Source of the DNA: Tepidisphaeraceae bacterium
GTDB lineage: Bacteria > Planctomycetota > Phycisphaerae > Tepidisphaerales > Tepidisphaeraceae
Length of the DNA stretch: 64,000 nucleotides
Direction of reading: 5' to 3'
NCBI GenBank assembly: GCA_050014015.1
Contig: JBEKEC010000046.1
Span: forward strand, 2,405 to 66,404
The notes beneath the pieces are model-generated. The model saw only the letters and a list, made by a program, of their open reading frames with translations, had not been told where the DNA came from and did not search any database. Numbering within the stretch: the first letter of the stretch is position 1; each line of letters opens with the position of its first letter. Position numbers and translations under genes: made by a program. Below are positions 5,653 to 25,379 of the stretch, piece after piece.

Positions 5653-6096
5653 GACAGTAGACCTGCTTTCGCGACGGACAAAATCTTTAGCGGATTGATC
5701 GGTCAAAACGCTCGGCTGAGCCGTGGGATCGAACAACACGTGATCCTCCTCAATTGATGATACCTTGCGACTCGTTGGTTGGATGCGTAAGGCATGCAAA
5801 GGTAAGACGTTCGGTGAATGACGCCTGTGCCTGACAACCCTCTATACGGCCCTCCATTTTGGTCTGGACGCAGGCACTGACTTTAGCGCCAAGACCAAGC
5901 AAGATGAGTCTAAGCAAAGACTAGCAGCGATGCAAATAAAATTGAGCCTCTCAACGTCAGCCTCGCCGCCAACCAGACGTTGAGGCGCATATTCTCGTAA
6001 AGGCGCATATTCTGCGCCATTTTCAGCCCGCACCGGGCGGGTTCTTTAGAATCGTCTTATCAGCCGGGGATTCAGCAGTTTTCTCGGGCACGACCG

Positions 6097-20203: not shown

Positions 20204-21100
20204 TCACGCCACCTCCGCCGGCGCGGGCGCGGGCTTGTATTTCGACGTCAGGGGCGTGATTTCGGGATACCGGCGGATCAATTCGGGCAAGGGCATCAGC
20301 ACGGTGGCGTTTTCGTAGGCGGCCTGTGCGTCGCGCGGGCGATCGAGCAGGTCGTACGCCCGCGCCGCCAGCGCCCATCCATCGGCGACGCGATGGCCGA
20401 GTTGCCGGCGCAGCACGTCGCGGCGTTTTTCGAACATTTCGATGGCCTCGGCGGGATGGCCGGTCTTCACGTCGCGATAGATTTCCACGAGCGCCAGGCC
20501 GGCGGATTCGACGCCGCGGCTGGAGCGGCGCAGCTCGGAAATGGCGCGGTCGGCATCGAGAAGATTGTCCTCGCGGAGCATGGCCATGGCCCGGCCAAGC
20601 CGCACGACGTGATCGGTCGCATCATCCAGGGGTATCTCGCCGAGGATGAAGTCGTGAACGGAGACGGAATCTTCGAAGCGGTGATACCGAGCCAGGACCA
20701 TGGCCAAAAAGAGCAGGGCCTGCGCCCGCGCCAGGGGCGAACGTGCGGGGCGAGACAGGAGCGATTGCAACAGCAAACCCGCCTCGGGCCAGCGGCGAAG
20801 CTGGATCAATTCGTCAACCGCGCCGACGGCGGCCTGCTCGGCGCGGGCCCGGCGAACGCTGACAAATCCGCTCAGGGTGATGCTGGCTACGAAACCCATG
20901 AGTCCGAAGGCGATCACCGATTCGAGCAGGTCTTGCGTTTGCGCGGATTGCGACGAGTGACCGACAAGCCAGGATAGAACGATGGTCAGCACGAATCCCC
21001 CGATGAGGAAATGCAGCCAGGGCGTCCTGGGCCGGGGCTCGCTGGCTTGGAGCAGGGTCGGAACGTCGAGAAATGGGGGCGAGCATTCCATAGCTTCCAT
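20204..21100 (-). CDS. Hypothetical 2-TM plus TPR-like protein (same architecture as 19391..20200)
   Basis: 298 aa with two TM helices followed by a TPR-like region. Its stop lies 3 nt from the downstream start. Confidence 0.5.
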   Translation of the reverse strand: MEAMECSPPFLDVPTLLQASEPRPRTPWLHFLIGGFVLTIVLSWLVGHSSQSAQTQDLLESVIAFGLMGFVASITLSGFVSVRRARAEQAAVGAVDELIQLRRWPEAGLLLQSLLSRPARSPLARAQALLFLAMVLARYHRFEDSVSVHDFILGEIPLDDATDHVVRLGRAMAMLREDNLLDADRAISELRRSSRGVESAGLALVEIYRDVKTGHPAEAIEMFEKRRDVLRRQLGHRVADGWALAARAYDLLDRPRDAQAAYENATVLMPLPELIRRYPEITPLTSKYKPAPAPAEVA

Positions 21101-21105
21101 GGATT

Positions 21106-21921
21106 CTAGGCGAAGTGGCGGAGATTGGAAGCGGGCAAAAGGGTCGAGGCGATCGGCCGCGAAGGGTCCCTGCCAAATTCAGCGGCGGTTTGGGCGATGT
21201 CTTTCTGAATCTGGAGCTTCAGCGGCTCGATGCCGCCGTAGGCTCGCTGAGGGCGAATCCAGTCGACAATTTCGACGCTGAGCGTGGCGCCGTAGAGGTC
21301 GCCGTGGAATCCAACCAGATGGGCTTCGATTTGCCGGACGTTGTCGCCGAAAGTCGGCATCGTGCCGATGCTGACCGCCGCGGGATAATTTTTGCCGGCG
21401 ACGGTACACCGGCCGACGTAAACGCCGTCGGCGGGGATGAGTTGGTCGTCGCATTTGAGATTGGCGGTCGGCACGCCCAGCGATTTGCCGCGGGCAAAAC
21501 CCTTCTGCACGGTGCCGCTGAGAGCGTGGGGCCGGCCCAGGCAAATCGCGGCATCGCGAACGCGCCCGAAGGCGAGAAGAAAGCGGATGACGGAACTGCT
21601 GACGGTGGCGATCTGCAAATCCAAGAGGGATACCTGAACCGATTCGGCCACGTGCAGTTTCACGTTGGAGGAGGCCGACCATTGTCCGAGCATGGGGACC
21701 GTACCCAGCGCTCCGCGTCCGAACCGGAAGGAAGCGCCTTCGACGAGATCGGAAACGGCGATTCGATCTTTAAGAATGTTCCAGAAATCCTCGGCGGTCA
21801 GATCGAGCACGGATTTTTCGGGAGGCAGAACGACCAGGTAATCCGCCCCCTCGGCCTGTAGCAAAGCCTGCTTGACGTCGGGCGGCGTGAGCCGCGGCGG
21901 CACGGACTGCGGCCGAAGCAC
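21106..21921 (-). CDS. ribF: Riboflavin kinase / FMN adenylyltransferase (RibF), N-terminally truncated as readable
   Basis: The riboflavin kinase domain is present (GKSLGVPTANL..GVYVGR..SIGTMPTFG..IEAHLVGFHGDLYGATLSVEIVDWIRPQRAY). The first canonical start is GTG 21921, inside the duplicated segment. The upstream frame stays open but has no ATG/GTG/TTG. Confidence 0.75.
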   Translation of the reverse strand: MLRPQSVPPRLTPPDVKQALLQAEGADYLVVLPPEKSVLDLTAEDFWNILKDRIAVSDLVEGASFRFGRGALGTVPMLGQWSASSNVKLHVAESVQVSLLDLQIATVSSSVIRFLLAFGRVRDAAICLGRPHALSGTVQKGFARGKSLGVPTANLKCDDQLIPADGVYVGRCTVAGKNYPAAVSIGTMPTFGDNVRQIEAHLVGFHGDLYGATLSVEIVDWIRPQRAYGGIEPLKLQIQKDIAQTAAEFGRDPSRPIASTLLPASNLRHFA

Positions 21922-22019
21922 GGTCAGGGGATGCGGCTCGAAGGTGACGAAGACCAGTTCGGCCTTTCGCTGTGCGGCAACGTCTCGCGCGGTTTTGAAA
22001 ATCCGCTGATGGCCGAGAG
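21897..22019. repeat. 123-bp direct repeat, copy A (ribF 5' coding segment)
   Basis: Identical base for base to 23595..23717 on direct comparison. It encodes ..LGHQRIFKTARDVAAQRKAELVFVTFEPHPLTVLRPQSVP on the minus strand. Confidence 0.9.
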
Positions 22020-22369
22020 AATCTGCATCGTGCAGGGAGTATATCGGATGGAGGCTGGCGGGGAACGGGAAGGAAAGAGTACGTGTTATTCTTGGACGAA
22101 GCCCCCGAAGGGCTGCTGGATGATTTTGGGGGGAACCTCAATGCCAGCGCGGCGATGGCGGTGACGAAGCAATTTTGGAACCGGAATCACAAGGAAGAAC
22201 CCGACGGCGGCGCCGTGGGCGTTTTTCGAGGGTTACGACGTGCAGAGACAAGGGCATTTACCGCCTGGACCGCCCTACCGCCTGGCGGATCTTCCTCGAT
22301 GAACGAGATCCACCGCTTTCTTTGTCTCATCTGGCAAGTGCGCCGGAGGGTTGGCGCGCGCTAATCCAG

Positions 22370-23533
22370 TCATGGCACCGTCGCTGGCGCATATTGCAAC
22401 TGATCTTCCTGGCTGAACACCGCATAGATAACAACTGTCGGAGGAGACGTTGACGCGACGAGCGTCTTGAGGTCATTGACATCCTTGCGTGTCGGCACGA
22501 ATCCGCTGATGCGGAGACTTCCGCCGGAAGCGGTAAAATCGGTGAACGAAAGATTGGCAAAGCGAGCATCGTTCGCAAGAGCGCGCCGGACCACCGGAAT
22601 GTGCGCCCGCGCCTTGTCCATATTGCGCGATTGCAAGTTGGCGGGGCTGAACGGGTAGTAGATGATCGTGGCAACCACGAGCAGACCAACTGTGACGAGA
22701 AACGTCTTACGCCGTTGGAAAAATCCCGCCTGCACAGGTGTTGTGCTAACCTGCACGGGTGTTGCGCTAAAGCGATTACGGATTCGTTGAAGCAAAAAGA
22801 GGTAAATCAGGGCGCAGAAGAACGAGGCGAATCCCGCCCAGCCTGCATAGGCATCGTAGCTGGCAAAGGCACTTAGGAAGTAACCCAGCCTCCCCTGGTT
22901 TGCCCGATTCAGAGCGTCACACTCCACCGCATTAACCAAGACCACCGTGACAAAAGCCGTGTAGCAAAGCGAGAAGACGATCTTCATTATCGCCGCGATG
23001 ACGGTCAGATTCGGGCCTCCGGCAATCTCGTACAGCGTGGGCACGTCTGGGCGATCATGCGCGATATTGCTGAGATTCGGAATCCGCACAAGCTGGCCCA
23101 AGTGTGAAAACTGCGCGACGGCTCCCGTTACAACACCAGCCGCTGTGATGCCGATCAGCCATTCCCCCCACCGCGCCATCGGCCCGGGAAGGATGAGGAA
23201 GAAAATGATCGCATCAAGATTGACGATCCCTATCGGCATCGTAAGTCGGACAATTCGCCGAGCCAGCGATTGCGCACCCCCGCCCGGTTGGACAGCGGTA
23301 ATTAACCAAGTACCTTGGAAGACAAGAACATCCCCACCCAGCATCAATACAAGCGTGACTACAAGACCTACCGGGCCAACATTCCAGAAGATCAAATCCC
23401 CGGCGACGAGCGAAAGGATGAAGAGCCCAGATCCGAGAATGCTCAACGACGCCCCAGTCGCCAGATTTTGCGCCCATCGATTGAGGCTGCGCGGCGTTTC
23501 GTATTCAAGCACGTTTTCCGATGAACCCGCCAT
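22370..23533 (-). CDS. Hypothetical polytopic membrane protein carried on the insert between the ribF repeats
   Basis: 387-aa ORF with about 8 hydrophobic helices and a ~90-aa soluble C-terminal domain. I recognise no family. Confidence 0.6.
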   Translation of the reverse strand: MAGSSENVLEYETPRSLNRWAQNLATGASLSILGSGLFILSLVAGDLIFWNVGPVGLVVTLVLMLGGDVLVFQGTWLITAVQPGGGAQSLARRIVRLTMPIGIVNLDAIIFFLILPGPMARWGEWLIGITAAGVVTGAVAQFSHLGQLVRIPNLSNIAHDRPDVPTLYEIAGGPNLTVIAAIMKIVFSLCYTAFVTVVLVNAVECDALNRANQGRLGYFLSAFASYDAYAGWAGFASFFCALIYLFLLQRIRNRFSATPVQVSTTPVQAGFFQRRKTFLVTVGLLVVATIIYYPFSPANLQSRNMDKARAHIPVVRRALANDARFANLSFTDFTASGGSLRISGFVPTRKDVNDLKTLVASTSPPTVVIYAVFSQEDQLQYAPATVP

Positions 23534-23580
23534 GCGCGTATTCTAATCTTGATCGTACCCACGGCAAAAATCAGGGCCGT

Positions 23581-23777
23581 TCAGGGGCGGGCAAGCGGCA
23601 CGGACTGCGGCCGAAGCACGGTCAGGGGATGCGGCTCGAAGGTGACGAAGACCAGTTCGGCCTTTCGCTGTGCGGCAACGTCTCGCGCGGTTTTGAAAAT
23701 CCGCTGATGGCCGAGAGGAACGTTCTCGGACGAAACCCTCGGATGGCCATCGAGGGCTTGGGGATTGCGTTCGCGGC
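23581..23777 (-). pseudogene. ribF: ribF 5' fragment (upstream copy), ending just after the repeat
   Basis: It reads ..ENVPLGHQRIFKTARDVAAQRKAELVFVTFEPHPLTVLRPQSVPLARP*. It diverges from the downstream copy exactly at the repeat edge and hits TGA at 23581. Confidence 0.55.
23595..23717. repeat. 123-bp direct repeat, copy B
   Basis: Identical to 21897..22019. The plus-strand ORFs 21931..22164 and 23521..23781 share the peptide MRLEGDEDQFGLSLCGNVSRGFENPLMAER. Confidence 0.9.
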
Positions 23778-25379
23778 CTAGTTCGGCTTGCTGGGGGCGG
23801 GAGTCAGTTTCCAGGTGGTGAACGCGCGCTTTTCTTGTTTGAAGGTCAGACCAGTCTGTTTCGTGATGTTGTCGAGGATTTGCTGGCGGCGGGCGAGTTC
23901 GGTGTCGGCGTGAACGATCGAGTGGGAGAGGGCCCAAGCGATTTTCTTCGGCTCATGATTGGCTTCGTCAACGATGGGGATGCCGAGCATTCCGCCGAGC
24001 ATGCTCCAAAGATCGGCGGGACTTGTGGTGCCGCCGCCCTCAACCGAATCGCCGGGTTTGGGGTGGTCGAGAACGTCGGCGAAGATTTGCAGATCGCCGA
24101 TTGTGGCGTCGGGAATTCGCCGCAAATGGTATCTGCCGGTGGCGATCATGGCGTCTTTGATGACTTCGATCCTTTCGTATCGCACGTCGATTTTGAATTG
24201 CTGGAGGAGGATGGTGTGGAGGTCGGCGAGAATGGCCTCCGTGGTGGCGCCGTCGCGGACGATCCAGTCGCCGTTGGCGTTGATGTCGGGGATGCCCACG
24301 ATGGAGATGTGGTGTCCGTCGAGATTGGCACAAGCCATAAGGACTGAGGGAAGATCGACGCCCGGGGGTCCATGGGCCATCATCCACTCCCGCTTGAGCG
24401 TGCCGTTGATCCAGCGCCATTGGATGAATGGCATGGGTGTGTCAATGTTCTCGACTTCGTGCAAGTATCGTTGGCGCTCCGGAAGCGGGGGCGGAGGAAT
24501 GAATTTGAGGTTTTGGTCGGGCGCAAGTGCGTAGGCGTTGTAGAAGGCGGTGCGCCAGTCGGCGGGATTCGTGGCGGGAGCGGCGGGTTGCGAGGTCGGC
24601 ACCGCACTGGCCGGCTGCGTTGCGGACGTTGGTGAAATCAATTCGATCGCGCCCGCGATCAGTGCTGTCAGGGTAATGGCGGCAAAGGCGATCTTGATCC
24701 AGAGTGGAGCGTTGAAAAGAGAGGAAGCCATGGCCGTGCCGGCGGAGGCGCCGGATAGGCCGATCTTGGCCAGTTCGGTGGTGAGCGTCGCGGGGATAAA
24801 TGGTTGGGGGATTTTCCCAAGTGTGAACGCAAGCAAGGGCGCCGGGGCGACGTACCCGCGATTGGCCAGACGCCGGCGCAGTTCGTCGACGGCGGCATTG
24901 ATTCGGCGAAGGACGGTGGGCTGGGAAACGTCAAGCTGTTCGGCCAGATCGCGCTGACTGCGGCCATGAAGAAAACGTTCGACGATCAGCGTTTGCTGAG
25001 ACTTCGGCAATTCCAGAATCACTTCATCGATGAGGAGGCTGAGTTTGTGCCAATCTTCACGCTCGGCGTCGTGGATAAAGGATTCGGCCGGAGCGGCCAA
25101 GGCTTCGTGGCGACGGCGGGTTTGGTCGCGGCGGATGAGGTCGTTGGCGGTGTTGACGGTGGTGGTATAGAGCCAGGCGGCCAAGTCGCGGCGAATGGCC
25201 CCGGCGGCTTTGGCGAGCTTGAGAAAGGTGAGTTGGACGACATCTTCAATGTCTTCGGCGTGGGCAAGCCGGCGGGCGGCCGCGGAGTAAATCATACGCT
25301 GATAATGTTCGACCAGGACACGAAAAGCTTCGGCATCCCGGTTGGAGGCATATTCGCGGAGGGCTTGCTGGTCGGTCAT
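23778..25379 (-). CDS. ECF-type sigma-70 family sigma factor fused to a TM helix and a ~270-aa C-terminal extracytoplasmic domain
   Basis: The N-terminal sigma2/sigma4 regions are present (..FRVLVEHYQRMIYSAAARRL..; ..LPKSQQTLIVERFLHGRSQRDLAEQLDVSQPTVLRRINAAVDELRRRL). They are followed by the hydrophobic helix LWIKIAFAAITLTALIAGAIELI and a long C-terminal domain. Confidence 0.85.
   Translation of the reverse strand: MTDQQALREYASNRDAEAFRVLVEHYQRMIYSAAARRLAHAEDIEDVVQLTFLKLAKAAGAIRRDLAAWLYTTTVNTANDLIRRDQTRRRHEALAAPAESFIHDAEREDWHKLSLLIDEVILELPKSQQTLIVERFLHGRSQRDLAEQLDVSQPTVLRRINAAVDELRRRLANRGYVAPAPLLAFTLGKIPQPFIPATLTTELAKIGLSGASAGTAMASSLFNAPLWIKIAFAAITLTALIAGAIELISPTSATQPASAVPTSQPAAPATNPADWRTAFYNAYALAPDQNLKFIPPPPLPERQRYLHEVENIDTPMPFIQWRWINGTLKREWMMAHGPPGVDLPSVLMACANLDGHHISIVGIPDINANGDWIVRDGATTEAILADLHTILLQQFKIDVRYERIEVIKDAMIATGRYHLRRIPDATIGDLQIFADVLDHPKPGDSVEGGGTTSPADLWSMLGGMLGIPIVDEANHEPKKIAWALSHSIVHADTELARRQQILDNITKQTGLTFKQEKRAFTTWKLTPAPSKPN

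Follow-up and report, generated by a model that had tools for sequence, protein, structure and literature searches.

A non-disruptive insertion-duplication at the start of ribF in a peat Tepidisphaeraceae bacterium, and its probably erroneous short form in one genome assembly

The ribF gene of a Tepidisphaeraceae bacterium (Phycisphaerae) from peat lies within a 64,000-nucleotide (nt) stretch of DNA (GenBank assembly GCA_050014015.1, contig JBEKEC010000046.1, positions 2,405 to 66,404 of the forward strand), the whole of which is called the window below. As the window is written, this normally essential gene is split near its 5' end by an insert flanked by 123-nt direct repeats, and the RibF that is left lacks its N-terminus. 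Comparison with independent assemblies shows that an insertion flanked by repeats is real and that ribF is undisrupted by it. The real locus is very probably a non-disruptive insertion-duplication, and the 123-nt repeat together with the headless ribF would be a local error of assembly or consensus. The feature itself is an ordinary, if neat, natural insertion-duplication that carries an orphan membrane gene.

In the window, segments 21897-22019 and 23595-23717 are identical 123-nt direct repeats, spaced 1698 nt, and the match ends at both flanks. Both read ..LGHQRIFKTARDVAAQRKAELVFVTFEPHPLTVLRPQSVP on the minus strand, on which all features given below lie unless stated otherwise. The order on this strand is a gene for a 533-amino-acid (aa) sigma factor, the upstream repeat (copy A, 23595-23717), a tail ending in LARP*, the open reading frame (ORF) of a 387-aa membrane protein, a 350-nt spacer, the downstream repeat (copy B, 21897-22019), and the body of RibF (21106-21921). 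This body holds the rest of the flavin mononucleotide (FMN) adenylyltransferase domain and the riboflavin kinase domain (Pfam FAD_syn and Flavokinase) and is first in a long co-directional gene array, whose order is displayed by contig L029. Copy A is the remnant of a ribF 5' stub, and copy B is part of the functional gene. A first-pass annotation, made from the letters alone, had reported the perfect 123-bp repeats, the stop of the upstream frame directly after LARP (23581), and GTG 21921 as the first canonical start of the downstream frame; the window has all of these.

It had also concluded that ribF is truncated, and for the window taken alone, the profile matches look that way. FAD_syn is matched only from profile position 53 or 20, and the C-terminal riboflavin kinase domain (PF01687, Flavokinase) is essentially complete (E = 2.5e-38, profile positions 1-122 of 124). 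Both copies open exactly at ..LGHQ, and the residues before it are ENVP and DADS, not the GNFDGVH of RibF; consequently, neither copy encodes the HxGH motif. No piece coding for GNFDGVH, which belongs to this motif at the RibF N-terminus, is present anywhere in the 64 kb, and the window RibF is devoid of the N-terminal (G)xFDGxHxGH motif of nucleotidyltransferases. Rescue of a full-length protein by a non-canonical start within the window was considered and rejected, because the coding sequence for residues 5-28 is absent. Measured against the RibF family TIGR00083, the window version is without codons 5-28 and is frameshifted, and as written it is not a full member.

The window is present in many peat and wetland metagenome runs, and its form was compared with a contig carrying the longer form (L001), with JGI contig Ga0427945_000555, and with other contigs from JGI, ENA, and Logan. 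An exact look-up of the 387-aa protein retrieved 16 contigs from these three sources, all identical to the window save for two pieces that the window is missing. The agreement is otherwise complete: between the window and Ga0427945_000555 there are 0 mismatches and 0 gaps over 18,085 + 3,681 + 1,700 nt (23,466 nt; 100.000%), a stretch that includes difficult tandem-repeat cassettes, and the contigs of other samples match equally well. At junction A (23716-23717; 23717|23716), 136 nt (L001 3682-3817) have no window counterpart; they comprise 12 unique nt, a TATACT element, and, from copy A of ribF, the ATG with codons 1-28. At junction B (22016-22019, placement ambiguous within TCTC), 71 nt (L001 5518-5588) are missing. 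These are ribF codons 5-28, including GNFDGVH, and their loss shifts the frame.

In the other assemblies the direct repeat is 246 nt long and ungapped, with a perfect last 166 nt, 6 mismatches in the preceding 80 nt, and about 45 nt of decayed similarity further upstream. It spans the TATACT element, the ribF ATG, and codons 1-69, with GNFDGVHLGHQ. Copy A of this long form is a 72-aa ORF, MQILHGLDGLLKAPKQSVMSVGNFDGVHLGHQ...PQSVPLARP*, which matches FAD_syn profile positions 4-59. Copy B opens a complete 331-aa RibF with an ATG start (L001 5506-6498), ..MSVGNFDGVHLGHQ.., which scores 194.4 bits against the TIGR00083 cutoff of 184.35 and matches FAD_syn positions 5-149 as well as Flavokinase; with its GNFDGVHLGHQ motif, its 331 aa, and a score above the family cutoff, it is an ordinary member of the family. 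Since the downstream copy is a complete RibF, the insertion does not disrupt ribF, and the claimed truncation fails: all assemblies other than the window that reach these sites give the 246-nt repeat and the 331-aa protein.

The start of the complete gene can be traced in the window itself. The part of copy B that is retained 5' of the missing piece (22017-22069) aligns with relatives L013 and L011 and contains TATACT (22043-22038) and ATG CAG ATT CTC (22028-22017). In that alignment CCGATATACTC and the ATG are invariant, and in L001 the same ATG opens the 331-aa RibF. The ATG at 22028-22026 is, on this alignment, the true start of ribF. TATACT lies 9 nt before the ATG (22038-22043 and 22026-22028, respectively) and is invariant in four Tepidisphaeraceae sequences. 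It is presumed to be the -10 element of the ribF promoter, and its closeness to the ATG suggests that the ribF mRNA may be leaderless or nearly so.

Depth in the Logan data agrees with two repeat copies. A 166-nt unitig consists of the repeat plus the 44 nt that encode ..MSVGNFDGVH directly before LGHQ, and its depth is about twice that of its flanks (24 versus 8.5-11.6, 29 versus 16-18, 34 versus 16-19, and 22 versus 7-10). The first-pass annotation had named read depth over the insert as a check on its reality, and the insert contigs have the same depth as their flanks. Insert at flank depth and a doubled repeat unitig together indicate that each genome has two copies of the repeat and that the population is fixed for the insertion.

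Among 25 loci that match at least one junction probe (contigs of JGI, ENA, and Logan, drawn from at least 15 samples, and the relative L013), window-type junctions number 0, and long-form junctions are present in every one whose contig reaches the site. The Logan contigs of 12 DNA runs (4, then 8 more) likewise give no support for the window junctions; one of these contigs (run X6) crosses copy B with the 71 nt present, and the Logan contigs of the insert and of the sigma gene both extend into sequence that the window lacks. In a metatranscriptome, one contig carries copy A in its long form, and the window junctions are absent from that RNA run. Words spanning junction A occur in 0 runs of the run index. 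Both window junctions are absent from the JGI metagenome contigs, where the long-form control pattern was found. Four long contigs contain the 387-aa gene, and each of them has, in addition, an ORF that depends on the presence of the 71 nt. Two ORFs spanning the window junctions had no matches, a result that is uninformative, as gene callers may not call such ORFs.

Given all of these findings, the window form is most likely an error. Natural deletions would have to have occurred twice and to have inactivated a normally essential gene in a sequence that has no single-nucleotide polymorphisms (SNPs) elsewhere, and it is this combination that makes them unlikely and leads to the judgment of error. 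For the same reason (0 SNPs in 23.4 kb), natural strain divergence was judged an unlikely cause of the gaps. The first-pass annotation had itself allowed that the duplication might prove to be an assembly artefact or a chimera; this would hold for the 123-bp truncated form, and not for the duplication itself, which is found in all of the assemblies. Overlap of assembler k-mers as the cause of both gaps was considered and rejected, because the joined ends share only 0-4 nt. In the SPRUCE study of MAGs (metagenome-assembled genomes; PMC12296737), which may or may not be the source of the MAG of the window, raw as well as normalised reads were assembled with idba_ud (maxk 120) and metaSPAdes.

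Three points weigh against an error. The ends joined at the gaps share only TCTC at copy B and 0-1 nt at copy A. The two gaps stop at one and the same repeat position, which looks systematic. Furthermore, Logan contigs drop rare variants, and the run index and the scanned JGI collection are incomplete, so that a minority genotype could be present. A different explanation takes the window form for a real genotype of low frequency: two microhomology-mediated deletions, of 71 nt and, at copy A, of 136 nt, would very recently have arisen in a clone of the same population and knocked out the FMN adenylyltransferase domain of RibF, and the cell would survive by means of another flavin adenine dinucleotide (FAD) synthetase or by scavenging, or the lineage would be doomed. 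The 71-nt gap does lie between 4-nt direct repeats (TCTC), as in slippage deletions, neither junction is explained by overlap on the assembler's scale, and minor variants may escape contig-level data. However, this explanation requires two independent deletions with a common 3' end point in a sequence with 0 SNPs over 23.4 kb; neither junction occurs in the 25 contigs, the 12 DNA runs, or the one RNA run, and junction A occurs in no indexed run; and ribF is normally essential, with no second FAD_syn N-terminus in the window. A rare genotype of this kind is therefore considered unlikely.

In its strictest form, the proposal would be that, in a clone of this otherwise SNP-free population, two deletions ending at the same repeat position have removed the promoter-proximal part from each ribF copy, and this is judged quite improbable. 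Were it true, it would mean life without a canonical FMN adenylyltransferase domain, with FAD obtained from another enzyme or from neighbours, and the end point common to the deletions would suggest that a site-directed process deletes DNA recurrently at the duplicated start.

With the window form set aside as a probable error, a false alarm is removed: ribF, seemingly inactivated in the reference MAG, is intact in every independent assembly, and metabolic reconstructions should consequently not score the organism as being without FAD synthesis. The case also illustrates that a single representative MAG can differ from its own population at repeats. In addition, the true ribF start escapes gene callers in correct assemblies too, where RibF is given 271 aa instead of 331 aa. 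The JGI calls for the long form (L001 5686-6501; likewise L026-L030 and L036) give a RibF of 271 aa from a GTG, and JGI also calls a 168-aa ORF on the opposite strand (L001 5170-5676) that overlaps the true ribF start, so that the 331-aa RibF is mis-annotated. This antisense ORF has no family match, overlaps the ribF start in part, and was treated as spurious. In ENA contig L002, RibF is called correctly.

The ancestral arrangement can be read from relatives. The closest, L013, has a RibF 90% identical to that of the peat bacterium, and five further relatives have RibF proteins 51-78% identical. L011-L015 and L017 each have one full-length ribF, accompanied by neither stub nor insert; the L016 contig begins within ribF. 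In the relatives L011-L017, there is no stub, no homologue of the 387-aa protein, and no nearby sigma gene. The first-pass annotation had singled out the junction of the sigma gene and ribF for such a comparison, and in the close relative L013 the site is uninterrupted. There, the spacing between a divergent yhfC-like gene and ribF is only 369 nt. Upstream of copy A the sequence is collinear with this yhfC-ribF spacer, upstream of copy B it has diverged, and the downstream part of copy B is again collinear with L013. It follows from this collinearity that copy A is the ancestral start of ribF and that the insertion extends from the LARP tail through the 5' part of copy B.

Contigs of related species, some of them L013-like, were also found in the same peat samples (runs X7, X8, X9, and X12; compared over window 22017-22052 and 23719-23759); in these, the region upstream of ribF is uninterrupted and the sigma gene is lacking. 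Relatives free of the insert are thus found together with the insert-bearing population; within that population, no insert-free allele was seen.

The face-value reading of the window can now be weighed as well. It would have a circular molecule with a 123-bp internal ribF fragment integrate by a single crossover, so that ribF is split and an N-terminally truncated RibF is made. Although this is what the window says as written, after integration by such a fragment the ribF start, with promoter, ATG, and codons 1-28, would still precede the upstream copy. The window is without this start, as it is without the 12 unique nt that are present in all other assemblies. In addition, comparison with L013 identifies the long copy A, which is collinear with it, as the ancestral arrangement, and the HxGH motif is absent from both window copies. 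This reading is regarded as hardly credible.

Taken together, these results have led to the following model for the long form. About 1.5 kb of compositionally foreign DNA with one orphan membrane-protein gene lies between two direct 246-nt copies of the ribF start. The upstream copy, in the ancestral context, is now a dead 72-aa stub, whose promoter may serve the newcomer gene. The downstream copy continues into the rest of ribF and gives a complete RibF, presumably with a promoter of its own, so that expression of the essential gene and of the array that follows it would be maintained. The most likely origin is one homology-driven event: a circular DNA with a fragment of the ribF 5' end may have entered by a single crossover, or the foreign DNA may have been inserted by illegitimate recombination anchored in homology. 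Gene conversion would afterwards have kept the last 166 nt of both copies identical. The claim of a foreign segment of about 1.5 kb in the ribF 5' end, between repeats of ribF's own 5' region, is in this sense sustained. The locus provides a clean natural example of an orphan gene harmlessly installed in the 5' end of an essential gene, with a duplicated promoter and first codons of which one copy serves ribF and the other may serve the newcomer.

The first of these two routes is the Campbell-type integration that had been proposed from the window. In its non-disruptive form it is a reasonable model, whereas the 123-bp fragment and the split ribF that went with it do not hold. An insert lies between direct repeats of one contiguous target segment (123 nt in the window, 246 nt in the other assemblies), and the relatives provide the uninterrupted target, or empty site. 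As in a Campbell insertion-duplication, direct repeats flank the insert, the upstream copy is truncated at its 3' end, the downstream copy is complete and functional with its own promoter, and a recombinase is unneeded. The present case differs in being a natural event in an uncultured planctomycete, in which no vector, donor, or circular form is seen, and in that its repeats are unevenly identical (166 nt perfect, then 7.5% divergence, then decay). With copies identical at 166 of 166 nt and 6 mismatches in the preceding 80 nt, the probability of such a pattern under a uniform rate is about 2e-6; L013 differs at 10 of the 166 positions of the perfect stretch. Because of this unevenness, a Campbell origin needs either later gene conversion or a diverged donor together with mismatch correction. 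It also counts against the model that no circular intermediate, donor genome, or recombinase was found, and the Campbell-like origin is to be taken only as a model.

The second route resembles homology-facilitated illegitimate recombination (HFIR), a process described for natural transformation in Acinetobacter and Streptococcus pneumoniae. In both, foreign DNA would be installed through a one-sided homologous anchor of a few hundred bp, with no mobile-element genes involved. However, HFIR usually replaces recipient DNA and leaves the anchor unduplicated, and here the anchor is duplicated.

It is also conceivable that the duplication is the scar of an integrase-driven element that entered at the ribF 5' end, supplied a promoter and an N-terminus, and has since lost all but one cargo gene. 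Some elements are known to enter a gene at its 5' end and to bring a replacement for that end: SXT/R391 enters the 5' end of prfC by means of a tyrosine integrase and a short core site and provides a diverged 5' end. The ribF locus is like this in that the insertion is at the 5' end of an essential housekeeping gene, whose function is kept by a promoter and N-terminal codons downstream of the insert. Furthermore, the third-codon-position G+C content (GC3) of the cargo gene is atypical, and the adjoining sigma gene is also an insertion relative to L013. The likeness ends there. No tyrosine or serine recombinase was found in or beside the insert (Pfam, NCBIfam), nor any other mobile-element gene, and the absence of an integrase that the first-pass annotation had noted stands. 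There is no short identical att core and diverged end; the repeat is a 246-nt copy of native sequence, 97.6% identical to it and graded in its identity. The insert ends carry no inverted repeats. Thus, an integrase scar is improbable. An insertion sequence or other transposon fits no better, as there is no transposase, inverted repeats are lacking at the insert ends, and the duplication is far too long.

The inserted DNA begins with the LARP* tail of the stub, followed by TTGCCG-16-TAGAAT (both within 23534-23594). This lone promoter-like match ends 6 nt before the ATG of the 387-aa gene and is at chance level, and as such is weak evidence. The cargo gene (22370-23533) encodes a polytopic membrane protein with 6-7 hydrophobic or transmembrane (TM) segments. 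The first-pass annotation had described it as an unknown polytopic membrane protein, and profile searches agree, with no Pfam or NCBIfam match. Among 5.8 billion proteins, there is only one full-length homologue (P0002, 35% identical). P0002 lies beside an SDR gene on a short contig of 2 kb, which stops 43 nt beyond it, and these surroundings give no clue to a donor. The GC3 of the cargo gene is 0.64, as against 0.73-0.79 for the neighbouring genes.

About 320 small proteins (100-150 aa), for which there is no Pfam family, match the C-terminal 110 aa of the cargo protein, which comprise a TM helix and a small domain. This module (window 22373-22741) consists of the TM helix and a domain of about 80 aa with the residues YYPFSP..IQSRNMAKA..HIPV..DPRF... 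Its AlphaFold2 (AF2) model (pLDDT 94) has an alpha-beta-beta-alpha-beta fold, and its top Foldseek matches are YscD and EscJ, ring-building proteins of type III secretion systems (T3SS), and OsmY and DolP, proteins with BON domains; these matches are weak (E = 0.02-0.3, TM-score 0.35-0.45). Pfam BON is matched below cutoff only, and only in two relatives. The cargo is probably a polytopic envelope protein with a BON-like domain that probably lies outside the cytoplasm.

Between the cargo gene and copy B lies the insert spacer (22070-22369), which has no counterpart in the relatives. An ORF on its plus strand, 'VLFLDEAPEGLLDD', has no family match and was treated as spurious. Metatranscriptome contigs (run X25; window 20300-24600) reach, at low depth, from the 3' end of the sigma gene into copy A and cover the cargo gene, the spacer, and ribF as well. 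This coverage fits transcription across the whole region, and DNA carry-over is possible.

The gene directly upstream of the duplicated ribF start (23778-25379) encodes the 533-aa sigma factor, which is of the ECF type with a long C-terminal extension (Pfam Sigma70_r2 and r4; TIGR02937). L013 lacks it at this place, and relative to L013 the gene is a clean insertion of 1.68 kb that separates ..CTGTCAAT from AAGCCCTCG.. (L001 1956-3638 versus L013 5788-5790). With the cargo insertion, it makes two separate gene gains side by side in front of ribF.

A motif of about 25 nt (GCCATCCGAGGGTTTCGTCC...) occurs twice, about 100 nt apart, in the L013 spacer (5799-5824 and 5925-5950) and once in the present genome (L001 3648-3673; window about 23725-23750), and a diverged copy of it lies upstream of repeat copy B. 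In its appearance, it looks like a small intergenic repeat or a regulatory site.

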